Virus record (IMG/VR): IMGVR_UViG_2778261175_000004
Strand: one strand, 5' to 3'
Length of the DNA: 28,329 bases
Source: a virus
Lineage: Duplodnaviria; Heunggongvirae; Uroviricota; Caudoviricetes
The notes beneath the pieces were generated by a model, which saw only the letters and a list, made by a program, of their open reading frames with translations, was not told the DNA's origin and did not search any database. Each line of letters starts with the position of its first letter. Positions within the stretch are counted from its first letter, which is position 1. Shown here one piece after another: positions 8,590 through 28,329 of the stretch. Position numbers and translations under genes: made by a program.

Positions 8590-8883
8590 ATGAAAAAAAT
8601 GTTGTTTTCTGCCGCTCTGGCAATGCTTATTACAGGATGTGCTCAACAGACGTTTACTGTTGGAAACAAACCGACAGCAGTAACACCAAAGGAAACCATC
8701 ACCCATCATTTCTTCGTTTCGGGAATTGGACAGGAGAAAACTGTTGATGCAGCCAAAATTTGTGGCGGCGCAGAAAATGTTGTTAAAACAGAAACCCAGC
8801 AAACATTCGTAAATGGATTTCTCGGTTTTATTACTTTAGGCATTTATACTCCGCTGGAAGCGCGTGTGTATTGCTCACAATAA
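8590..8883 (+). CDS. bor: Bor lipoprotein (serum-resistance outer-membrane lipoprotein)
   Basis: From the Met at 8590: MKKMLFSAALAMLITGCAQQTFTV...LEARVYCSQ, 97 aa with lipobox LITGC; matches recalled lambda Bor / DLP12 BorD. Oriented opposite to the late genes, as in lambda. Confidence 0.9.
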   Translation: MKKMLFSAALAMLITGCAQQTFTVGNKPTAVTPKETITHHFFVSGIGQEKTVDAAKICGGAENVVKTETQQTFVNGFLGFITLGIYTPLEARVYCSQ

Positions 8884-9376: not shown

Positions 9377-9870
9377 TGCTGACCCCACAAACAGATTTCA
9401 CGCTCAATCTCACGACGAGTCATGAGACCTTTCCATTGCTTACCGCCAGCATATGTCCAGCGACGTAGCTGATCACATGCGCCTTTGATATCGCCCTGGT
9501 TTATTTTGCGAAGAAGCGTCGATGTTCTGAAATTGCCAGCACCCACGTTGTAAACGAATGAGTAAAGAGCGCCGCGCGTTGTTTCCGGTATATCGACTTT
9601 GATGTACGGGTTAATTTGTCTGGCGACAGTGGCAAGGTCTTTATTCAAGAGTGCTTTGCATTCTGCTTTGGTATACGTTTTACCGAGCATGATGTCTTTT
9701 CCTGTATGCCCGTGACATACAGTCCATACACCAACAATATCTTTGTATGGTATGTAGCTGACACCCTCCAGACCATCGTTACCACTTGAGCCAGTGATTA
9801 ACACTGATGCTATAGCAATTGCTCCGCCACCAATAGCAGCAGCAACGGCTTTTCGTAATGATGGAGGCAT
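9373..9870 (-). CDS. R: SAR (signal-anchor-release) endolysin, phage 21 R / DLP12 RrrD type lysozyme
   Basis: 165 aa, [57 protein letters not shown]...; N-terminal Gly/Ala-rich SAR domain; matches recalled RrrD. Confidence 0.9.
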
Positions 9871-10085
9871 TATTCACCTCTCGCAGCCTTGCGCTTATCT
9901 TCTTTAATCTTGAAATAAAGGTTTGTCAGGTACGTCAGCAAGCCAAATACCAAGCTACCCAGCACACCTATTGCTGCCCACTGTGAGGGCGTGACTTTAT
10001 CGAGCAGCTGTAAAAACCAGTAGCCAGCACTGCCTGCGGAGGTGCCGTAGGCAATGCCCGTTGTTAACTTATCCATGGATTTCAT
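9870..10085 (-). CDS. S: Pinholin, S21 / EssD type, with dual-start motif
   Basis: 71 aa, [31 protein letters not shown]...[13 protein letters not shown]; Met1 and Met4 give the holin/antiholin dual start; matches recalled S21/EssD. Confidence 0.9.
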
Positions 10086-10180
10086 AGCCTCACCTCCGCA
10101 AATAACGGATGGTGTACACGGTTCGGAACGAAGAGGAAAGGTATAGAAGTTACATTAGCGTAAGGCTTGAACATCTATTC

Positions 10181-10211
10181 AAAAAGAAAAACGCCAGCGA
10201 TTATTCTGGCG
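10181..10211 (-). terminator. Putative rho-independent terminator downstream of the AraC-family gene, upstream of the holin
   Basis: On the minus strand: CGCCAG-AATAATCG-CTGGCG followed by TTTTTCTTTTT (forward 10192-10211 stem-loop, A-run 10181-10191). Confidence 0.45.
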
Positions 10212-10273
10212 TAGCTGAAAGCATCATACAATTATCAAATACGAAAATTACAAAATCATTAAAACGCATCACG

Positions 10274-11005
10274 TTACATCATGTCTTTTTCTAAAAAAAG
10301 TCTTGATGAATATTGATGGGGAGGAACACCAAAATATCTTCTGAAAACACTCACAAAATATGACGTGTTTTCATAACCGCATATCTCAGCAACTTTTCCA
10401 ACAGAATATAAATTGTAGCTTAATAACCTTTCCGCCATCACCATTCGCTCTTCAAGAATTAACTTACTAAATGATAAGCCTTCGTGCTTTAATTTTCTTT
10501 TTAACAGACTTTCACTCAGATACAGTCTTGAAGATATATCACAAAGTCTCCATGCTGCAGATATATCCGTGTGAATAATAGCCTTAACTTTACTTCCTAA
10601 ACTATTAAGACATCCAAATAAAAAACTTTGCACTATTTTCTCTGAAGATAAGATAGCAAGACATGCAAGTGATATTTGATTTCTAACAAAATCCACAGTT
10701 CTGCCATCACAATTCAAGCATGCAATCAAGTTCTTTAACAATGAAAAATCTTCACATTCCACCATCAAGTATGCCGGATAAAACCTTCTTACAGAAAAAG
10801 GTGAGAGTGTGTTGCTTTTAAAGAAATCATTAACTGTTTTCTCTTCAACATCTACGATCATTACATGATCTATATTTGATGAAAAAAAATCTTTTAAATT
10901 GTAATCAATGAGAACAGCACTTCCTTTTTTAAACAAAATATCTTCTTTACCAATTCGGACATCAAACGAGTTCAACACCAAAATGATAGAACATATGTAT
11001 GGCAT
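10274..11005 (-). CDS. AraC-family transcriptional regulator (AppY-like), AT-rich cargo gene
   Basis: C-terminal AraC helix-turn-helix region (...KVAEICGYENTSYFVSVFRRYFGVPPHQY). N-terminus MPYICSIILVLNSFDV resembles recalled AppY MDYVCSVVFICQSFDL. ATG at 11005 has an AGGTGG ribosome-binding site; the track ORF begins 3 codons upstream at a GTG. Low GC relative to flanking phage genes. Confidence 0.8.
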   Translation of the reverse strand: MPYICSIILVLNSFDVRIGKEDILFKKGSAVLIDYNLKDFFSSNIDHVMIVDVEEKTVNDFFKSNTLSPFSVRRFYPAYLMVECEDFSLLKNLIACLNCDGRTVDFVRNQISLACLAILSSEKIVQSFLFGCLNSLGSKVKAIIHTDISAAWRLCDISSRLYLSESLLKRKLKHEGLSFSKLILEERMVMAERLLSYNLYSVGKVAEICGYENTSYFVSVFRRYFGVPPHQYSSRLFLEKDMM

Positions 11006-11356
11006 ATTATCCACCTGATATCATTGGGGTTACACCAGGTAAGTATAGGTGGAAAATCAATATTCGCCAGTTCAACAATAAGGAAAATCTCATTGCATCA
11101 CAAGTATAAAATTATGTATTTAACTCACAAAGACAAATTATTAAACCAATCTGTTATATTATATATAGCTGCGTGGAATCATAATATTATATATTTTGAC
11201 TGGCATGTTTACCAACTTTAAGTTGCATCTCAATGGTTTCTTCAGCGTAAACAGAGTTTTTATACAAACTGACACTCTGGGTATCATAGTGTAGTTTTTA
11301 CGATTGTAAATATCCTGCATGCAGGAACTCATCCTTTTGGATGATATCGCATACAA

Positions 11357-12316
11357 TTAATTTACCATCAGTCTTAGAGCCAGTTCGTCCGGATAGGGAT
11401 CGAAGTAATTCTGTGTAAGCAAGTAATCATTAGGATACTCACCCAGATAATGCTTCAGCAGAGTCAACGGCGCAAGAAGAGGTAATGTGCCAGAACGATA
11501 GTTAAGTATAACCTCGCTCAACTCTTTACGCTGGCGTGTACTTAAGTAGTTACTAAAATACCCCTGTATATGCATCAGCACATTCGTGTGATTTTTACGT
11601 GATGCAGGTTTTCTGAGAATCGCCATCAGCTTATCACGATACACCTCAAAGTATGATTCAAGGTCCGCCCACTCGTGTATTGCAGCCACAAATGGTCCCA
11701 TATCTTTATAGCCTGCCTGACTATGCGCCAACAACTGAAGCTTATAACGACTATGAAAAGCTAATAACTCTCTTCTTGATAATTTCTCCTTGTAAAGGTG
11801 ATTGAGCTCATGCAAAGCAAAAACTCTTTCAACAAAATTCTCACGAAGCACTGGATCATGTAATCGCCCATCCTCTTCAACCGGTAGCCAGGAAAACTTT
11901 TCCATCAAAGTGCTCGTAAATAGTCCCACTCCATCTTTACGACCTCGATTACCATTTTCATCATAGACACGCACGCGCTCCATGCCACAGCTGGGAGATT
12001 TAGCACAAACCACAAACCCCGATACATCCTTTAATTTGTCCATATAAGAACGACTAAACTCTGTCATTCTCTCTGTCACATCCTCATTCTGGTCGTGGCT
12101 GAAACACATCCGTATATTTCCTTGCGTCGAGCGCACAAGACGTAGAGCAGGACGCGGAACTGGCAGCCCTATAGCCATTTCCGGACATACTGGTCTGAAT
12201 GTTACCCATTCCACTAATTTGTCCATTAAAAAGTCAGCTCTTTTGTGACCACCATCAAAACGAACAGCAGAGCCGGCCAAACAACCGCTGATTCCAATCA
12301 CAGGTTTTTTTATCAT
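11357..12316 (-). CDS. TudS/RudS-like thio-nucleobase desulfidase: DUF523 [4Fe-4S] domain fused to DUF1722
   Basis: 319 aa. N-terminus MIKKPVIGISGCLAGSAVRFDGGHKR with further Cys in PVCPEM and AKSPSCGM fits the recalled DUF523 (TudS) cluster-binding pattern. The C-terminal half (about 170-319) fits the DUF1722 size and position seen in RudS-type fusions. Strong GGGGGAGA ribosome-binding site. Domain assignment is from memory, not a profile search. Confidence 0.65.
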   Translation of the reverse strand: MIKKPVIGISGCLAGSAVRFDGGHKRADFLMDKLVEWVTFRPVCPEMAIGLPVPRPALRLVRSTQGNIRMCFSHDQNEDVTERMTEFSRSYMDKLKDVSGFVVCAKSPSCGMERVRVYDENGNRGRKDGVGLFTSTLMEKFSWLPVEEDGRLHDPVLRENFVERVFALHELNHLYKEKLSRRELLAFHSRYKLQLLAHSQAGYKDMGPFVAAIHEWADLESYFEVYRDKLMAILRKPASRKNHTNVLMHIQGYFSNYLSTRQRKELSEVILNYRSGTLPLLAPLTLLKHYLGEYPNDYLLTQNYFDPYPDELALRLMVN

Positions 12317-12508
12317 ATTCTCCCCCTTGACTAATTCATTAACACATAAACTGTGTAGTGCACGGAATAAATTGCCTTTCTGGCGTCATCACTGACAATT
12401 TTTCTGTTATAGACTATTCCTAATATAGTATGAAAGTTCTTTAAGTGATCGGTCGTAATCATCTATCTTTCATACTTACTCTCAACTATCAAAAGTACAG
12501 GATTTATT

Positions 12509-13033
12509 ATGAAGTTATGGCCTGTGTTGACTGGCATTGCACTCTCTTTCACTCTTATAGCATGTAAGGCCCCGACACCACCTAAAGGTGTGCAGCCGAT
12601 TACAAATTTTGACGCCAACCGCTACCTCGGAAAATGGTATGAAATAGCTCGCCTCGAGAACCGGTTCGAACGTGGTCTGGAACAGGTCAGCGCTACCTAT
12701 GGAAAACGGAACGACGGAGGGATTCGTGTACTTAACCGTGGATACGATCCAACGAAAAATAAATGGAGCGAGAGCGAAGGTAAAGCATACTTTACTGGAG
12801 ATACTAAAACTGCAGCGTTGAAGGTTTCGTTTTTTGGCCCCTTCTATGGTGGCTATAATGTAATCAAACTGGATGATGAGTATAAGTATGCTCTTGTCAG
12901 TGGTCCGAACAGAGAATACCTATGGATTCTGGCAAGGACCCCAACTATTCCAGATAAAGTAAAAGCAGACTATGTGCGAACCGCTCAAAAGTTGGGATTC
13001 AATGTCAATGAATTATTATGGGTTAAACAATAA
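12509..13033 (+). CDS. Bacterial lipocalin Blc-type outer-membrane lipoprotein (divergent homolog)
   Basis: 174 aa with lipobox FTLIAC. Blocks NFDANRYLGKWYEIARLENRFERGLE, SEGKAYFTG, AALKVSFFGPFYGGYNVI and YLWILARTPTI closely parallel recalled E. coli Blc, but with many substitutions (roughly 60-65 percent identity by eye). Confidence 0.85.
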   Translation: MKLWPVLTGIALSFTLIACKAPTPPKGVQPITNFDANRYLGKWYEIARLENRFERGLEQVSATYGKRNDGGIRVLNRGYDPTKNKWSESEGKAYFTGDTKTAALKVSFFGPFYGGYNVIKLDDEYKYALVSGPNREYLWILARTPTIPDKVKADYVRTAQKLGFNVNELLWVKQ

Positions 13034-13061
13034 AATCCCTACCCGAAATAATACTTATTAG

Positions 13062-13088
13062 AAAAAAACCAGCCTTTGGGGAGGCTGG
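13062..13088 (-). terminator. Putative late-leader terminator (tR'-like), also placed to terminate the convergent blc-like transcript
   Basis: Stem CCAGCCT / AGGCTGG (13069-13075 / 13082-13088) with loop TTGGGG; on the minus strand it is followed by a T7 run (forward A7 at 13062-13068). Lies about 100-125 nt downstream of the Q stop, as expected for the lambda-type 6S leader transcript. Confidence 0.5.
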
Positions 13089-13188
13089 CTAAATCAGGAA
13101 ACAAGCTGTTATATGATAATAACTACGTTGCGATTCCAACATTTAAAATGTTAGACTAATGAGAATCAGACAGCAACTTTTCCTTTAA

Positions 13189-13566
13189 TTATTTCGAACA
13201 ATCAGCATCCATCTCCAATCGGAGATCCAACACCATCAGCATACCCTCCACTACGCCCTCAGCTTTCTGGAGCATCCTGCCAACCCAACAATCAGATCGC
13301 CCATGCTTACGTGCAAGCGCCATAAAAGTCATGCCGCCGACATAATAGTCCACCAATAAATCATGCAAATCGCTGTTGTTCTTTTTCAGACGGGCCATGC
13401 ACCCGCAAATGATCATCGCGTCATCGTCACAACATTGCGGGCGAGATTTTACTTTTGAAGGAATTAATCCCTTAAAACCGGCGGCAATGGACGACCAGGT
13501 CACATCTTCATGATTATTAGCCGCCCACGCTCCCCAACGCTCAAGAACCATCTGAATATCACGCAT
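13189..13566 (-). CDS. Q: Late-gene antiterminator Q (QuuD-like)
   Basis: From the Met at 13566: [60 protein letters not shown]...; Cys-rich Zn motif; matches recalled DLP12 QuuD over most of its length. Confidence 0.8.
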
Positions 13567-13648: not shown

Positions 13649-13789
13649 ACTTCATACTCCTGCTCCTGTCAGTGTTTTGGCGTAATTCTTCAGTATTCGG
13701 TAATCGGTCAAAACAGAGCCGGGGAAACGATATAAGCGCAGACGCCCCCAGCGGTGGCGAAGAAGTTCTGCCATATTAAACTCAAACAT
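13649..13789 (-). CDS. ylcG: Small nin-region protein YlcG-like (46 aa)
   Basis: Manual translation of the minus strand: MFEFNMAELLRHRWGRLRLYRFPGSVLTDYRILKNYAKTLTGAGV; ATG overlaps the rusA stop (TGATG). Below the ORF-track size cut-off. Confidence 0.5.
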
Positions 13790-14152
13790 CATTCATTCCC
13801 CATTTCGGTGATGGTCAGTTCCAGCCTCCCACCTTTGGTAACAGGCATCTTCACAACGCGGTAATCAACGACCTGAGCATCATCCAGCCAGAAACCTGCT
13901 TTAGTGAGTGCGTCAAAAGCGGCTTTTTGCAGATTATCCAGGTCACGGCTACGGCGATCCGGCATGTGGCACTCAATGCGGATTTTCACAGGCATAGCCA
14001 GGCCGATATCCAGCATTGCGTTTTTAATGATTCGGGCGACGTTATCGCGGTATGCCTGCCCCCTCTGCACTGACGTGCGTGCGCCCGCGATTATGGCGGT
14101 AATAGCGATTATTGCTCGGAGGCCAGGGTAATGTGATACTGTAGGTATTCAC
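13789..14152 (-). pseudogene. rusA: Holliday-junction resolvase rusA, disrupted by a +1 frameshift in a G5 run (C5 on the forward strand, 14059-14063)
   Basis: Minus-strand GTG at 14152 gives [31 protein letters not shown], the recalled RusA N-terminus, then hits a stop after the G5 run. The remaining RusA sequence ([19 protein letters not shown]...TITEMGNE) continues in the +1 frame as track ORF 13789..14070. Confidence 0.75.
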
Positions 14153-15271: not shown

Positions 15272-16069
15272 TTACTCTCTGGAAGCTTTTCTTATCTCTC
15301 TTGGTGTTATATTAAAACGATTATGAAATCTTTCAGTAAAACGAGAAGGACACTTATAACCATTTTCTCTGGCAATCTCGCTTATAGGTTTTACCGTCGT
15401 TTGTATAGCAGACAACGCATTATTTAACCTCACATCGTCCAGTATACTTTGGAAACTTACCCCCTCGCTTGCTAGACGGCGATGTAATGTAGAAACAGAA
15501 ATGTAGAGATATCGAGCAACCTTGTTTGCTGTCCATTTTGTGCCGGGTTCGGATAGCAGCAGGTTATAACAACGACTTATCAATGATTGTTTACTATATG
15601 ATAAAAGTAAATGATTAACATGATTCACTCCTAACGAAAGTAGAACGCCCATTGCTAAGTGCTCCTGAATTTTAGTTGAGAAGCCTCGGGAAACAGATGT
15701 TTTTAGTTGCTCCCAACAATATATTAACTCAGGATTCTGAGGTAAAAAGAAACTTGTTTTGTTACGTATTTGATCAGTTACCGTATAAAGTTTTTGGAAA
15801 CTCTCAATTAAATCAATGGGTAAGTAAAGCATTTCTGCAAGATAAAGCCCTGCTTCAGGATAATTCTCAATATAAAATTCATAACCACAAGGAAATAATA
15901 TTATTTGATTATTATCAACAGTTAAAGTATGCGTCTCCCAATTGATAACTTTCTTTCCCTGACGGATACGACACAAAGCTGGCATAAGAGGCTTAACCCT
16001 ATGAATCTCATGATGTTTATGCATCCGTATTTCTTCGATCTTTAAGTTAGTCTTACCTCTTGCCAGCAT
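15272..16069 (-). CDS. ybcM: AraC-family transcriptional regulator YbcM-like
   Basis: 265 aa; C-terminal AraC helix-turn-helix (...[42 protein letters not shown]...). Matches DLP12 YbcM in position and length. Confidence 0.8.
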
Positions 16070-16078
16070 ACTCTCACC

Positions 16079-16630
16079 CTACTTTATCTCATAAACTGGT
16101 GTTATCTCAGCGGTTGCGATTTTATTAGCATTAAGCATATAACCAACTAACGCTCCGCTGGAGTTAGAATCTACAGGAATCTTTTCAGTTTTTAGAGCCC
16201 ATACTTTAAACTGGTAATGATGTGGTTTATCTCCTTTAGGAGGACACGCGCCACCAAACCCAGCATAGCCAAAATCATTTCGGCCTTGAACAGCACCAGT
16301 CGGCAGTTTTGTTCCATCACGTCTCCCTGCATCAACGGGCAAATATGTTATTGTTGCTGGAATATTAACAACAGTCCAATGCCACCAACCACTGCCTGTA
16401 GGTGCATCTGGATCATATACAGTTACGGCAAAGCTTTTGGTACCTTCAGGAACACCAGACCAGGTTAATGAGGGCGATGTATTACCACCTTCACACCCAA
16501 ATCCAGAAAAGACATGAGACGTTGTAAGTTGCTCTCCTGTTTTTATTTCATTACTAGTGACCTGAAATGCTGCAGCCTGCGCAGAAAATGTTATGAATGC
16601 CAATACAGTTGAAACGATAAGTGTTTTCAT
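16079..16630 (-). CDS. ybcL: Periplasmic phosphatidylethanolamine-binding protein (PEBP / Raf kinase inhibitor-like) YbcL-like
   Basis: 183 aa with signal peptide MKTLIVSTVLAFITFSAQA; PEBP motifs (...YDPDAPTGSGWWHW...HHYQFKVWAL...). Confidence 0.85.
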   Translation of the reverse strand: MKTLIVSTVLAFITFSAQAAAFQVTSNEIKTGEQLTTSHVFSGFGCEGGNTSPSLTWSGVPEGTKSFAVTVYDPDAPTGSGWWHWTVVNIPATITYLPVDAGRRDGTKLPTGAVQGRNDFGYAGFGGACPPKGDKPHHYQFKVWALKTEKIPVDSNSSGALVGYMLNANKIATAEITPVYEIK

Positions 16631-16846
16631 AAAAACCTCTTTGTTATGACCTATCGTTATTTTATTTGATATTCCTTTATCTCATTATGCATAAAGGCGC
16701 AATTTTTATGCAAAAGCAATCACAATTGTACCCCCAACCCAATTATTTGCCACAATATACACAAAGCACATTGATACTATCTAAAAACTCTGCTTTATTA
16801 TTAGTAATACCTACGAAAGTCGGTGTTATTTTTTAACCTATCATTC

Positions 16847-16896
16847 AAAATACGTGACATACACCATTTTGCTCATAATAATTTGTCACGTATTTT
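16847..16896. repeat. Perfect 13-bp inverted repeat AAAATACGTGACA / TGTCACGTATTTT with a 24-bp spacer, in the ybcK-ybcL intergenic region
   Basis: Direct reading: 16847-16859 and 16884-16896 are exact reverse complements. Confidence 0.9.
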
Positions 16897-17094
16897 CAGT
16901 ATTTGAATCTGCGACCAAGAGTTCTCACCTGACAAATGATTAAGATTGTATAGCTCATTTACTACCCCAATACAGCCGTACAAAACTCGCTTGTGGGAGC
17001 AAACAAAGTAATTACCCATTAAGTTTCGTCAAAGATAATTAATTCTGTCTTGCACTTTATCACCATAGCATAACTTAAAATCCGAGATCATTAT

Positions 17095-18621
17095 TTAGAA
17101 ATAAATCTCACCATCAACCATATATTTGAGAGCACTTATCGCCTGCTGGGCGGATATTACTTTCATTAAAGGATAGTGTTTAAAAACAATGCCATTCATA
17201 AAATAAATATCACAGGTTTTATTATCCGTATTAATTATGATTTTTTCGAATGTTTTATAGGCAAGTGTACGGCATAACTCTCGTCCATTTTTACTGGTTA
17301 AGTCAATAGCATAAAAATCACTGAATGAATTTACACCTTTACTCTTCAAAGTTTTCAATGATACCGAAGCCCTTCGTAATTCCTTATCTAATAGTCTTAT
17401 TTTCTCTGCTATAGCGGTAACTTCAGGCGCGACAGACAATGCAACGATTAAATTATTAATTTTCATCTGAAGCTCAATAATTTTTAACTCTAAAGTTTCA
17501 TTAGCATCTTTCTTGTTTTCAACTGGTTGAATTTTGCTACAATTAAAAAGCAATTCATTAATGATATTATAATCAACCAAATCTCTTTTTATTGATGGCC
17601 TGTCACATCGATGTAATCTTCTCATCGGACAAACATAATAGCCATGCAAACTTCCAGATACCGCATGAACAATCATGGTATTACCACAAGCCTCACACTT
17701 CATAACTGTTCGAAGTAGATTTATTAGCATAGGATTCTTGCTACTATTGCTAATACCAAAAGGTGCCAACCGAATTTCCTGTACAGCGTAAAACAAATCA
17801 TCTGATATGACTCTGGGATAATAGCCAGCGATTTCACTTATCCCTTTCCCTCTTGCACGATATGAAGGTACGCATATACCTATCAGAGCTTTATTCGCTA
17901 ATAATTTTTCAATTACAGAAGGTCCCCATGCACTTTCTTTTCCTGAGAAATTCTTTACAGCATGATCATTTAAATACTTGGCTATTGCATTCAATGAGCG
18001 CCTTTCCATCCTGAGTTTAAAAATTAGCTCAATAGTTTTCACCCTGTCGGGGTCTGGAACAAAAGCCGTTCTTTTGTCATCTAAGGAGAGCCATCTCGGA
18101 CAAGACGCCGTCATAATCGTACCTGATTCCAGTGCATCCTGCCGTTTTTTCTTCCATGATAATTTAACCCGACTTGACTTTATCTCGCTTTCTTCATTTG
18201 CCCTTTGTGCTATAAGTATGGCTTTTATTAATGAATATGGCTCATTCAAAGAGTCAATATTATAGACTGTATTGTCGCAAAGAGTTATAACATCAATACC
18301 GTGATTCAAAATCAATTTCAGACGTTCAATCGCTTCACCGACTTTTTCTCTTGAAAGTCTGTCCAGACTTTCAACTAACAATGTAGTTCCTGGCAATATA
18401 TAACCATGCTCTATAGCATCTAAAAATTCCGAAAAAGCTCCTGATTGTGCATGCTTTCCTTTGAATGCACTTAATCCTAAATCTTCATATGTTATGGTAT
18501 CAAGATAATAATCACTATTTACCTTTAACCATTCAGCAATAAGTCTTCTCTGTCGGTTTAATGAGTCACCAGACATCTGACCTGGTGATGAAAATCGCAT
18601 ATATGCTATGGCTTTTTTCAT
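17095..18621 (-). CDS. ybcK: Large serine recombinase (resolvase/invertase-type N-terminal catalytic domain plus large C-terminal domain), YbcK-like
   Basis: 508 aa. N-terminus MKKAIAYMRFSSPGQMSGDSLNRQRR... has the serine-recombinase catalytic motif (Y-x-R-x-S-S). C-terminal Cys cluster (CEACGNTMIVH...YYVCPMRRLHRC) is typical of large serine recombinases. Confidence 0.85.
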   Translation of the reverse strand: MKKAIAYMRFSSPGQMSGDSLNRQRRLIAEWLKVNSDYYLDTITYEDLGLSAFKGKHAQSGAFSEFLDAIEHGYILPGTTLLVESLDRLSREKVGEAIERLKLILNHGIDVITLCDNTVYNIDSLNEPYSLIKAILIAQRANEESEIKSSRVKLSWKKKRQDALESGTIMTASCPRWLSLDDKRTAFVPDPDRVKTIELIFKLRMERRSLNAIAKYLNDHAVKNFSGKESAWGPSVIEKLLANKALIGICVPSYRARGKGISEIAGYYPRVISDDLFYAVQEIRLAPFGISNSSKNPMLINLLRTVMKCEACGNTMIVHAVSGSLHGYYVCPMRRLHRCDRPSIKRDLVDYNIINELLFNCSKIQPVENKKDANETLELKIIELQMKINNLIVALSVAPEVTAIAEKIRLLDKELRRASVSLKTLKSKGVNSFSDFYAIDLTSKNGRELCRTLAYKTFEKIIINTDNKTCDIYFMNGIVFKHYPLMKVISAQQAISALKYMVDGEIYF

Positions 18622-18800
18622 GGTGACACCTGCTAACGTATGCTTTTATAAACCTTAGTGGTGGGATATAATTTTTGTTTAATTTTTATTTAAAAAGACA
18701 ATTAAGGTCACATTATCTTGAATATACAACAATAATCGTATTGCAATTTTCTTACGCCATAATCTTGAAAGCACAAAAGAATACATAAAAAATAAAGACA

Positions 18801-18845
18801 TTAACAAAAAGCATAAAACGAGGCTCATATAAATATAAGAGCCTC
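18801..18845 (-). terminator. Putative terminator downstream of emrE
   Basis: Stem GAGGCTC / GAGCCTC (18820-18826 / 18839-18845) with a 12-nt AT loop, followed on the minus strand by GTTTTATGCTTTTTG. The long loop makes this only moderately convincing. Confidence 0.35.
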
Positions 18846-18875
18846 CATATTTTAGTCGTTTAGAAACAAATTATT

Positions 18876-19211
18876 TTAATGTGGTGTGCTTCGTGACAAT
18901 AAATTAATAACCAACACACCGGCACAAATCAACATCATGCCTATAATAGCTGGCAGGTCCAGCCGTTGGTCGAAAAGTCCCCATGACAGTAAGCTAATCA
19001 GGACAATACCGACTCCTGACCAGATAGCATAAGCAATCCCTGTAGGAATATAAGCCAGCGTCTGAGCTAATAACCAGAATGATGCACAATAACAAATAAT
19101 TGTACCAACAGATGGCCATAACCGTGTAAAACCTTCTGAAAACTTCATTAAGGTTGTACCAATGACCTCTGCAAGTATTGCACCACCAAGATAAATATAA
19201 GGGTTCATAGC
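18876..19211 (-). CDS. emrE: Small multidrug resistance efflux transporter EmrE
   Basis: From the internal Met: MNPYIYLGGAILAEVIGTTLMKFSEGFTRLWPSVGTIICYCASFWLLAQTLAYIPTGIAYAIWSGVGIVLISLLSWG..., 110 aa; matches recalled E. coli EmrE. Confidence 0.95.
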   Translation of the reverse strand, partial: AMNPYIYLGGAILAEVIGTTLMKFSEGFTRLWPSVGTIICYCASFWLLAQTLAYIPTGIAYAIWSGVGIVLISLLSWGLFDQRLDLPAIIGMMLICAGVLVINLLSRSTPH

Positions 19212-19275
19212 ATATTCTTTCCTGTTCAAACTGGAGAGAATTGTACTACAGTTTGAACTCAACTCACCTGTTTCA

Positions 19276-26932: not shown

Positions 26933-27163
26933 ATGACAATCAATATTCAGCCGATTCTAATAAACCGCGAGCGTGTTCAGGAGATGCTTGGTGGTATCTC
27001 CAGAACTACTTTTTACCGGAAGCGTAAACAGTGGGAGCAATCAGGGACACCATTCCCTCGGGAAGTGGAAGAAATCCACCCACCGAAAGGCGGCGCCCTC
27101 TTTCGCTACAAGGAAGTTATTCAGTTTTGCAAAGATAAAGGATTGATTTCCGAACACTCTTGA
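26933..27163 (+). CDS. xis: Excisionase / AlpA-family helix-turn-helix protein
   Basis: 76 aa; ...INRERVQEMLGGISRTTFYRKRKQWEQSGTPFP... is the AlpA/Xis-type winged helix-turn-helix signature; adjacent to the integrase; GGAGA ribosome-binding site. Confidence 0.6.
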   Translation: MTINIQPILINRERVQEMLGGISRTTFYRKRKQWEQSGTPFPREVEEIHPPKGGALFRYKEVIQFCKDKGLISEHS

Positions 27164-28329
27164 ATTTTCTTAGCCCATAATTCTGCTGCGTCCTGCTGCT
27201 CGGGGATGTAGTCATACTGGTCATAAACAGCCAGCATCCCCGTGAGCTTATGCCCGAGAATTTTCTCCGAAACATGAGGTGCTACTCCAAGTTCAGCCAT
27301 TTTTGTTTTGCACGTTCTGCGCAGATCGTGCAATGACCAGTGCTCGCCCCCCATAACATCTTCTACCTGTTCTGCAATAGAAATTAGGGTGCTGGCAGAC
27401 ATTGGGCGATTTTCCTGTAACTTAGCCGGAGGAAATACGATTGACAGATCAGGGTATAGATCAAATACCTGCTGCAAATAATCTGCTGCGAGTTTTGAAA
27501 TACCGCGAACAAATCGCTTACGCGTTTTTGAGTTCTCTTTCGGTATAGTCCATTCTCTAGACTTCAGATCAAAATCAGTCTTCTTAGCCAACCGCAATTC
27601 AACACCACGACAACCAGTTAACGCAACAATTCGAATAAACATTTTGTTTTGCCACGACATTTTCGTTTTGTCGATGGCATTCCAGAATGCGCCTATCTCA
27701 ACATCGTTAAGAAAACGTTCGCCATTATTAGGTCTACTGCCGATATCATTAATCTCAAGAAGCATCAGTGCATTTGATGTTATGCGTTTTCTGCGTAACG
27801 CATAGCGGATCACTTGCTTCATCTTCACCAGTACATTTCCCGCCTGTACGGGTGACCCACCTTTTGTTATGCGAATGAATATTTGCTCCCACTCTACAGG
27901 ACTCATTTCATCTGCAATCAGCTTACCGTAATTGTCGGTGATGTGAAGTTTCAGCATCCGCTTCCAGTATTCGTACTTCACCATCTCTTTTACTGAAGGA
28001 GTATCAAACCACTCGTCAACTAGGGTACTGATGCTTGGGGAACTTGATGCAATATCTTTGGCTTTCTTCCTTTGCATGGCTGGGTCTTTACCCTTCTCCA
28101 ACCACCCTTTACACTCTTCCAATGCATCGCGAGCTTCCTTAAGCGACATCTTCCCGTACGTTCCGAGCTTTAACCTGGCGGGTTTTCCATTGAAACGATA
28201 GCGGTATTGAAAGGTGATAAGTCCCTTCGGGCTGATCCTGACAGAAAGTCCGCCTCCGTCAGCTATCTCCTCAGGTCCCTCATATGCTTTTCCGGATATA
28301 CGTCGCAGCTTTGTATCGTTGAGTGCCAT
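27121..28329 (-). CDS. int: Tyrosine integrase (P4-like family with N-terminal arm-binding DUF4102-type domain)
   Basis: 402 aa. MALNDTKLRRISGKAYEGPEEIADGGGLSVRISPKGLITFQYRYRFNGKPARLKLGTY is the classic P4-type integrase N-terminus. C-terminal catalytic region carries ...HDLRRT... and ...LGH...Y. The start codon is the last three bases of the window. Confidence 0.9.
   Translation of the reverse strand: MALNDTKLRRISGKAYEGPEEIADGGGLSVRISPKGLITFQYRYRFNGKPARLKLGTYGKMSLKEARDALEECKGWLEKGKDPAMQRKKAKDIASSSPSISTLVDEWFDTPSVKEMVKYEYWKRMLKLHITDNYGKLIADEMSPVEWEQIFIRITKGGSPVQAGNVLVKMKQVIRYALRRKRITSNALMLLEINDIGSRPNNGERFLNDVEIGAFWNAIDKTKMSWQNKMFIRIVALTGCRGVELRLAKKTDFDLKSREWTIPKENSKTRKRFVRGISKLAADYLQQVFDLYPDLSIVFPPAKLQENRPMSASTLISIAEQVEDVMGGEHWSLHDLRRTCKTKMAELGVAPHVSEKILGHKLTGMLAVYDQYDYIPEQQDAAELWAKKIQECSEINPLSLQN

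Follow-up and report, generated by a model that had tools for sequence, protein, structure and literature searches.

What does a lambdoid prophage carry in the interval between its late antiterminator gene, Q, and its holin gene, where did this cargo come from, and at which stage of the phage life would it be expressed? These questions are raised by IMG/VR virus record IMGVR_UViG_2778261175_000004, a stretch of 28,329 nucleotides (nt) of caudoviricete DNA (the window, hereafter) in which the slot between Q and the holin gene (10086-13188) contains a Blc-type lipoprotein gene (+ strand), a RudS gene (-) and an AT-rich AraC regulator gene (-). Judging from comparisons at the sequence level, this block is composite, a blc-rudS pair and a separately acquired regulator forming two juxtaposed acquisitions. 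We think it probable, if far from certain, that it is a composite moron island whose genes are lysogenic-conversion cargo expressed from their own promoters and read through by Q-modified polymerase after induction.

Evidence for a composite origin

Four observations suggest that the "three-gene module" of the original prediction is in fact two morons side by side: (i), base composition changes sharply within the block, the AraC gene having 32% G+C in a window of 48%, and rudS and blc 43-44%. (ii), blc-rudS pairs exist on enterobacterial chromosomes. A scan of one genome per species found chromosomal RudS proteins 66-77% identical to that of the slot in Citrobacter, Enterobacter, Leclercia, Kluyvera, Klebsiella oxytoca, Pectobacterium and others, and a Blc paralogue, mostly 77-82% identical, lies divergently upstream of rudS at most of the Enterobacter and Leclercia loci and in C. 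sedlakii, where, just as in the phage, the pair has no gene in between. (iii), homologues of the regulator occur alone. One (L008 in our set of loci, 64% identical) lies directly behind a PF03589 antiterminator gene on a contig that ends after the regulator gene, another (L009, 56% identical) lies between a PF06323 Q and a holin gene, and copies of the type of the prophage regulator PatE stand beside tail-fibre genes without blc-rudS. (iv), the alleles are mosaic: blc and rudS can agree at 99% where the regulator region agrees at 74-90%. Variation between alleles peaks in the spacer between rudS and the araC gene, where positions 11068-11310 show indels and windows of 22-45% aligned identity. 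The block is thus real and widespread, with a conserved gene order, as the word module implied, but it appears to be two juxtaposed acquisitions rather than one module.

The chromosomal loci of Enterobacter, Leclercia and Citrobacter share the divergent lipocalin-RudS pair with the phage but differ in their surroundings: a MerR/MlrA-type regulator (E. hormaechei) or no regulator at all (C. sedlakii) lies between the genes, and there are no phage genes nearby. Neither the AraC gene nor Q nor a holin gene was found at the chromosomal blc-rudS loci examined. We considered whether the AraC gene could be a cognate regulator carried along from the chromosome and rejected the idea, since the regulator seen there is of the MerR/MlrA type. 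In the Enterobacter hormaechei chromosome (L027, 3660-4898) this regulator gene and a transthyretin/HIUase-like gene together separate blc from rudS, and the presence of a MerR regulator beside RudS echoes the orf242-orf319 (RudS_ST) arrangement of Salmonella, as given in PMC11417400.

The block has the attributes of a moron: a conserved candidate promoter and terminators, a G+C content of 32-44% against the 48% of the window, and a junction that holds other cargo in DLP12, ev099 and PhiR40_1. Between alleles, the ratio of non-synonymous to synonymous substitution (dN/dS) is 0.06 for blc, 0.10 for rudS and 0.27 for the regulator; all three are therefore under purifying selection and are real genes rather than chance open reading frames (ORFs).

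Architecture of the Q-holin slot

Homology to K-12 DLP12 ends at 13207, within the last codons of Q, and restarts at 10100, 15 nt before the ATG of the holin gene (essD), so that the replaced block spans about 10101-13206 and includes the late leader. From Q to the holin gene, the features are as follows.

13189-13566, - strand: Q, late antiterminator of 125 amino acids (Pfam Phage_antitermQ, 2.5e-51)
13148-13217, - strand: candidate pR' region, with two candidate promoters
13060-13111, - strand: 3' part of the late leader, with TAACAG motif, tR'-like hairpin and T-run (terminator scan, folding)
12509-13033, + strand: blc, lipocalin lipoprotein of 174 amino acids (Lipocalin_2, 7e-44), antisense to late transcription
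12317-12508, no strand assigned: divergent blc-rudS intergenic region, 33% G+C, containing a candidate rudS promoter
11357-12316, - strand: rudS, TudS (DUF523)-DUF1722 fusion of 319 amino acids (2-thiour_desulf, 3e-40; DUF1722, 2e-40)
11006-11356, - strand: rudS-regulator spacer, AT-rich and indel-prone, bearing a candidate regulator promoter and ribosome-binding site
10274-11005, - strand: PatE/YdeO-like AraC regulator of 243 amino acids, 32% G+C (HTH_18, 1e-14; HTH_AraC)
10181-10212, - strand: second intrinsic terminator, in the gap between the regulator gene and the holin gene (terminator scan, folding), kept in the 2E9 allele
9870-10085, - strand: S21-type (pin)holin, first lysis gene (Pfam P21 holin S, 2e-35)

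The original prediction had read this slot well. Its coordinates for a three-gene cargo between Q and the holin gene were accurate, Pfam and the ORF positions agree with its assignment of a Blc-type lipocalin (+), a TudS/RudS-like protein (-) and an AraC regulator (-), and the latter is indeed AT-rich. The ORF strands likewise bear out that the two minus-strand genes are co-oriented with late transcription, and a tR'-like terminator placed at 13062-13088 was recovered in essentially the same position, as a hairpin at 13090-13067 with a T-run. Three other small ORFs of the slot were taken as non-coding: 11159-11356 and 10109-10294, which have no Pfam match, and 12331-12462.

Distribution of the block

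With the 3.1-kb block as query, matches were found in 1156 of 5426 complete E. coli genomes, and in 992 of them (about 18%) the match covered at least 80% of its length, that is, an intact triad; the matches fall into identity groups of at least 99%, about 94% and about 89%. The block is also present in 12 sequenced phages, at 99.2% identity in IdasGreatGrand and at 89.4% in 1H12, 2E9 and other Jouyvirus isolates. In every context inspected it lies between a Q of this family and a holin gene, on DLP12-like, Qin-like (essQ/rrrQ/cspI) and lambda-like backbones. Similarly, 74 of 80 scored IMG/VR loci, retrieved via the regulator, have part or all of the gene order, 67 of them the full Q(+), blc(-), rudS(+), araC(+), holin(+) succession, and in the remaining six a contig end or a rearrangement interrupts the locus. 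A contiguous host segment not associated with phages, named in the original prediction as the alternative to phage cargo, was nowhere encountered among these E. coli contexts: each time the triad was read or scored between a lambdoid Q and a holin gene.

Q alleles at least 95% identical to that of the window occur in 1085 genomes, as against 1156 with any part of the block, and the quuD allele (80-90%) occurs in 2280. Because the counts of the Q allele and of the block are nearly equal, Q, leader and cargo appear to travel as one mosaic unit. Carriage on plasmids was rejected, as the four plasmid records concerned, of 0.28-4.9 Mb, look like mis-assigned chromosomal DNA. Insertions of IS3, IS911 or IS1 were seen within the block in several genomes (hits H1-H3, H54, H65 and H69). 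Two loci (L069 and L074), on short contigs binned into a metagenome-assembled genome of "Candidatus Nanosynbacter" (D148_maxbin.008), carry Q, blc, rudS, the regulator, the holin and the lysozyme at 94-100% protein identity; this is almost certainly contamination of the bin by an E. coli phage.

The three cargo proteins

Each of the three proteins already belongs to a PHROG family of unknown function, and since PADLOC matched none of them, their membership of a known defence system is unsupported.

The lipocalin scores 316 bits against the NCBIfam Blc model NF007786, above its cutoff of 267 bits, and is 64% identical to the chromosomal E. coli Blc of solved structure, a protein that binds fatty acids or lysophospholipids in the outer membrane. 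By direct reading, its N-terminus is MKLWPVLTGIALSFTLIAC followed by K, with the lipobox LIAC and Cys19. The protein is made in one lysogen. Accession WP_000780581 is annotated on DNA of strain 266917_2 that is 100% identical to the window across the block, and WP_000780581.1 was detected by proteomics in a clinical carbapenem-resistant E. coli, where it rose 2-3-fold under meropenem and was labelled "Blc" (PMC13459554). The protein under this accession is the prophage lipocalin of the block and not the chromosomal Blc. As a phage gene blc is far from rare, Mathieu et al. 2020 (PMC6969025) having counted it among the morons in over half of 19 lambda phages from the gut. A remnant of the block is present in a Qin-like prophage of BL21(DE3) (NC_012971.2, 1588189-1589585; L082), which has kept Q and an intact lipocalin gene and only the first 147 nt of rudS, interrupted by an IS3 element, and has lost the regulator and lysis genes.

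RudS joins an N-terminal TudS/DUF523 domain (PF04463, residues 7-149, 3e-40) to a C-terminal DUF1722 domain (PF08349, residues 192-309, 2e-40), and matches phrog_3275 over its full length; the strong ribosome-binding site of its gene reads AAGGGGGAG. The protein shares 93.4% identity with RudS_vir (H3V29_gp66), its counterpart in Escherichia phage 1H12. Its Cys12, Cys44 and Cys110 occupy the positions listed for RudS_vir and RudS_ST as ligands of a [4Fe-4S] cluster (Table 1 of Jamontas et al. 2024, PMC11417400). In that study RudS_vir reduced 4-thiouridine (s4U) in tRNA when expressed in E. coli and, of the RudS proteins compared, was the one with the shortest lag on 4-thiouracil (PMC11417400). 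The slot RudS is thus predicted to be an iron-sulfur tRNA 4-thiouridine desulfidase converting s4U to uridine, by homology to this close orthologue of shown activity. The same paper states that E. coli lacks RudS (PMC11417400); contrary to this, the protein is encoded on prophages in about 18-21% of complete E. coli genomes. The available text of PMC11417400 makes no mention of the gene neighbours of RudS_vir or of its place in the late operon.

The regulator starts at an ATG behind a GGTGG ribosome-binding site and matches phrog_1450. It scores 126.8 bits against the YdeO equivalog model NF007407, whose cutoff is 348, with a full-length match (1-234 of 253), and at the sequence level it resembles YdeO without being YdeO. 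Identity is 54% to ECs_0287 of the Sakai prophage Sp1 and 31-34% to GadW, YdeO and AppY. ECs_0287 is probably PatE (z0321, on OI-8), to go by its island position and length. PatE, PsrA/PsrB and AppY, AraC proteins encoded by prophages, switch on gadE and hdeA and increase resistance to acid, and the slot regulator has the features of this kind: it is prophage-borne, AT-rich, and combines two C-terminal AraC helix-turn-helix units with a GadW/YdeO-like N-domain. Because its identity to the presumed PatE is just 54%, a gadE/hdeA regulon for it would be an extrapolation. An AlphaFold model (pLDDT 80) resembles CsvR, Rns and ToxT over the full length (TM-score about 0.6); across the family K20 is invariant and R74 nearly so.

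A candidate promoter for the regulator consists of a -35 box CTGGCG (11070-11065), 17 nt and a -10 box TATACT (11047-11042). The pattern (T/C)TGG(C/T)(A/G)-17/18-TATACTT, together with the GGTGG ribosome-binding site, is invariant upstream of seven PatE-like genes whose proteins are 52-100% identical and which lie at two different phage positions. A more distant relative was seen in phiSTEC1575-Stx2k (L015, 3501-4214), where a YdeO/PatE-like AraC gene, 39% identical, lies in late orientation in the gap between the antiterminator and the tRNA-stx2k genes; placed upstream in this orientation, it should be co-transcribed with Shiga toxin 2k on induction.

Transcription across the block

At the DNA level Q matches K-12 quuD at 88.8% as far as 13207 and the Q of H-19B at about 77%; it is distantly related to Q21 in the PDB (E-value 1.9e-8). 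Two candidates for pR' were found: TGGAGA-18-AATAAT (13217-13188), from a consensus scan, overlaps the stop codon of Q and is also present in the 2E9 allele, and TTGCTG-17-TAACAT (13176-13148) emerged from direct reading of the DNA. Alignment of the post-Q region with those of K-12 DLP12, ev099, PhiR40_1 and H-19B did not reveal a common pR', only the TAACAG motif and the terminator hairpin being shared. The motif (13111-13106) stands about 20 nt upstream of the hairpin, AGCCAGCCTCCCCAAAGGCTGG (13090-13067, late strand), which lies 100 nt after Q, is followed by a T-run, folds at -14.9 kcal/mol (z = -3.6) and is kept in the 89% allele. The two align with the terminal part of the H-19B post-Q leader, which finishes in GCAGCCTCCCCCAGTGGCTGGCTTTTTT, and the identification of 13060-13090 as tR' is thereby supported. 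In Stx phages the tR'-terminated leader transcript is processed into a small RNA, StxS (PMC7547250). The short pR'-tR' leader of the window might be a regulatory RNA like StxS, which activates RpoS; no Rfam family matches 13060-13111.

The second terminator (10212-10191, -12.1 kcal/mol) separates the AraC gene from the holin gene and is retained in the 89% (2E9) allele. An analogous one follows the lone AraC gene of L009, where both terminators flank the single regulator. A candidate rudS promoter, TTGAGA-16-GATGAT (12485-12458, - strand), has an identical site in the 2E9 allele; the blc-rudS intergenic region that contains it can barely be aligned to its chromosomal counterpart in Citrobacter.

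Within the block, rudS and the regulator are downstream of the tR'-like hairpin, upstream of the lysis genes and co-oriented with them, and blc is antisense. By homology with other phages, no shared promoter remains ahead of the holin gene; since, in addition, phages isolated as virions keep this arrangement, the late transcript very probably crosses the block. Q-dependent read-through of the cargo is plausible on these grounds, and the conserved promoters and terminators would favour autonomous expression in the lysogen at least as strongly.

We thus propose the following scheme. A divergent blc-rudS pair would have been captured from an enterobacterial chromosome, and an AT-rich, PatE/YdeO-like regulator that has a conserved promoter to itself would have been acquired separately and may plug into the host acid-resistance (gadE/hdeA) regulon, like PatE, PsrB and AppY. 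In the lysogen, tR' would halt the constitutive late leader and the downstream terminator would keep transcripts begun at the cargo promoters from running into the lysis genes; the cargo would be expressed from these promoters as lysogenic-conversion functions. Upon induction, Q-modified polymerase would pass both terminators toward the holin gene, reading rudS and the regulator in the sense and blc in the antisense direction.

Several points weigh against this scheme. Identity of the regulator to the presumed PatE is only 54%, and ECs_0287 is itself only probably PatE. Both pR' candidates are weak matches to the consensus. The activity of RudS_vir was measured under overexpression, and its activity on tRNA was apparently lower than that of RudS_ST despite comparable amounts of soluble protein (PMC11417400). 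Finally, an AntA/AntB prophage antirepressor also rose in the meropenem proteomics (PMC13459554), which makes partial prophage induction a possible confounder: the rise of Blc could reflect induction rather than an envelope-stress promoter, although late transcription is antisense to blc.

Alternative explanations

The cargo could instead serve primarily a late, lytic-cycle function, as stx does, with RudS (and perhaps the regulator) abundant only under Q antitermination. RudS would then strip s4U from host tRNA, sparing late translation from near-UV s4U8-C13 crosslinks and the stringent response, or might evade some tRNA-directed host response. Much in the locus is congenial to this idea, namely the co-orientation of rudS and the regulator with late transcription downstream of the tR'-like terminator, the strong ribosome-binding site of rudS, the tight linkage of the block to one Q allele and its leader, and its integrity in phages isolated as virions. 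Moreover, UV is a classical prophage inducer and s4U the near-UV sensor (summarised in PMC11417400). We nonetheless hold a primarily late function to be unlikely, if worth serious attention: blc runs antisense to the late transcript, the regulator comes with a conserved promoter and terminator of its own, the Blc protein, at least, is present without deliberate induction, and the chromosomal rudS homologues are ordinary cellular genes. In addition, no phage phenotype has been reported for RudS_vir and the literature searched holds no link between s4U and prophage induction. It is a decidedly speculative proposal, and probably not a correct one, that RudS is an auxiliary gene of the late operon, so that induction, classically by UV, floods the cell through Q read-through with an s4U eraser, the near-UV-sensitive base is removed, s4U8-C13 crosslinks and a growth arrest of the stringent type are averted and late translation is kept running; if true, this would be the first phage case of host tRNA de-modification as a step of the lytic programme.

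It is improbable, in our view, that the three genes form one regulatory unit in which the AraC protein controls the divergent blc and rudS promoters in place of the MerR/MlrA-type regulator of Enterobacter, perhaps sensing a lipid related to the ligand of Blc. In favour of such a unit, the triad is rarely broken up, the phage version lacks the chromosomal MerR/MlrA regulator, and the predicted fold of the AraC protein is like those of the fatty-acid-binding Rns, CsvR and ToxT, with the invariant K20 and nearly invariant R74 in keeping. However, close relatives of the regulator are found apart from blc and rudS, in the same slot as well as beside tail-fibre genes, its segment recombines independently of blc-rudS, C. 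sedlakii has the pair with no regulator between, and a shared operator motif was not found. That the block is neutral DNA hitch-hiking on a successful Q-leader allele, as its tight linkage to one Q allele and its frequent insertion sequences and truncations (BL21(DE3), hits H1-H3, H54) might suggest, is very hard to believe given dN/dS values of 0.06-0.27 across alleles 5-13% apart in DNA, an intact triad in 992 of the 1156 genomes carrying any part, retention in phages of limited genome size, and conserved promoter and terminators.

Relation to known systems

A close parallel to the block is that of phage 1H12, whose RudS_vir is the same TudS-DUF1722 fusion, with Cys12/44/110, in a triad at the identical position between the Q-like gp64 and the holin gp68; it represents another allele, and 1H12 is a Jouyvirus whereas the window has a DLP12-type backbone. 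The slots of the other phages compared support the earlier likening of this one to those that hold nmpC in DLP12 and stx in Stx phages. In H-19B, 933W and the Stx2k phage, stx too follows a related Q and a homologous tR'-type hairpin, precedes the holin gene and is co-oriented with late transcription. The window differs in that its cargo is not a toxin, one of its three genes is antisense and a terminator stands before the holin gene; furthermore, Q-dependent expression was demonstrated for stx, whereas for the cargo described here it is a prediction. The nmpC/ompD gene of DLP12 and ev099 fills this slot with different cargo within one and the same prophage family, with flanks about 89% (Q) and 95% (holin) identical, but it is a single gene, antisense to late transcription, and its leader differs save for the shared TATAACAG motif.

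With PatE, PsrA/PsrB and AppY the slot regulator shares the character of an AT-rich, prophage-borne, GadW/YdeO-like AraC protein of about 245 amino acids, and with ECs_0287 (probably PatE) it has promoter and ribosome-binding site in common. It differs from the PatE kind in forming a distinct clade and in lying in the Q-holin slot rather than beside tail-fibre genes; the Q-holin slot of L009 is also occupied, by an 84% PatE-like copy. Lastly, bor/iss and lom of lambda are, like blc, genes for small outer-membrane proteins or lipoproteins that lambdoid phages carry and lysogens express, but the slot Blc has a lipocalin fold.

The combination of genes had gone unrecognised in the original prediction, yet about 18% of complete E. 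coli genomes have it, as do named phages, and the blc moron, RudS_vir and the PatE kind have all been described. The locus is therefore an ordinary but common lambdoid late-region moron island, each of its genes coming from a described family. In the searchable literature we found no treatment of the triad as a unit, of its position in the late operon or of its chromosomal origin. What is new here is its apparently composite make-up, its chromosomal blc-rudS relatives, the recurrence of PatE-like genes behind two other Q families (one example each) and the two bracketing terminators.

Other features of the prophage

The list of ORFs and the annotation of a genome that is 100% identical across the studied region indicate that the window is an essentially complete DLP12-type lambdoid prophage. 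Its genes run from the integrase (27121-28329) through ren, emrE, ybcL, ybcM, ybcN, ninE, ybcO, rusA and ylcG to Q and, 3' of Q, on to the lysis genes, iss/bor and then the head and tail genes. The lysozyme that follows the S21-type holin has a hydrophobic N-terminus resembling a signal-anchor-release domain, so that the label "pinholin" is reasonable. Just past Rz/Rz1 is a bor/iss serum-resistance lipoprotein gene (8590-8883, +); with Iss and the Blc paralogue, the prophage bears two outer-membrane lipoprotein morons. A second cargo island occupies the nin region from ren to ybcN (15272-19262, -) and contains emrE (multidrug efflux), ybcK (recombinase), ybcL (PEBP-like) and ybcM. The last of these encodes another AraC regulator, unrelated to that of the slot and only 22% identical to it. 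The rusA gene (13789-14152, -) is apparently frameshifted, its longest ORF having 93 amino acids from a GTG, as against about 120 expected, and it is annotated as a frameshifted pseudogene in a genome 100% identical across the studied block. The whole window gave no Rfam match at gathering thresholds, the block yielding only sub-threshold chance matches, and ARAGORN found no tRNA genes, unlike in the corresponding slot of some Stx phages.

Significance

About one in five complete E. coli genomes has a prophage-borne gene for a predicted tRNA 4-thiouridine eraser, despite the stated absence of RudS from this species. Strain differences in s4U content, in the response to UVA or in s4U-based RNA labelling could thus trace to prophage RudS. 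The label "Blc" in proteomic and genomic studies conflates the phage lipocalin with the chromosomal gene. The recurrence of PatE-like genes in the Q-holin slot, together with a distant homologue before stx2k, extends the rewiring of the acid-resistance network by prophage AraC proteins, and their position in the slot suggests that expression of the regulator may be coupled to induction. A tRNA de-modification enzyme expressed late is a testable idea, and with the plaque-forming carriers 1H12, 2E9 and IdasGreatGrand the locus offers a natural system for asking what a phage gains from such an enzyme.

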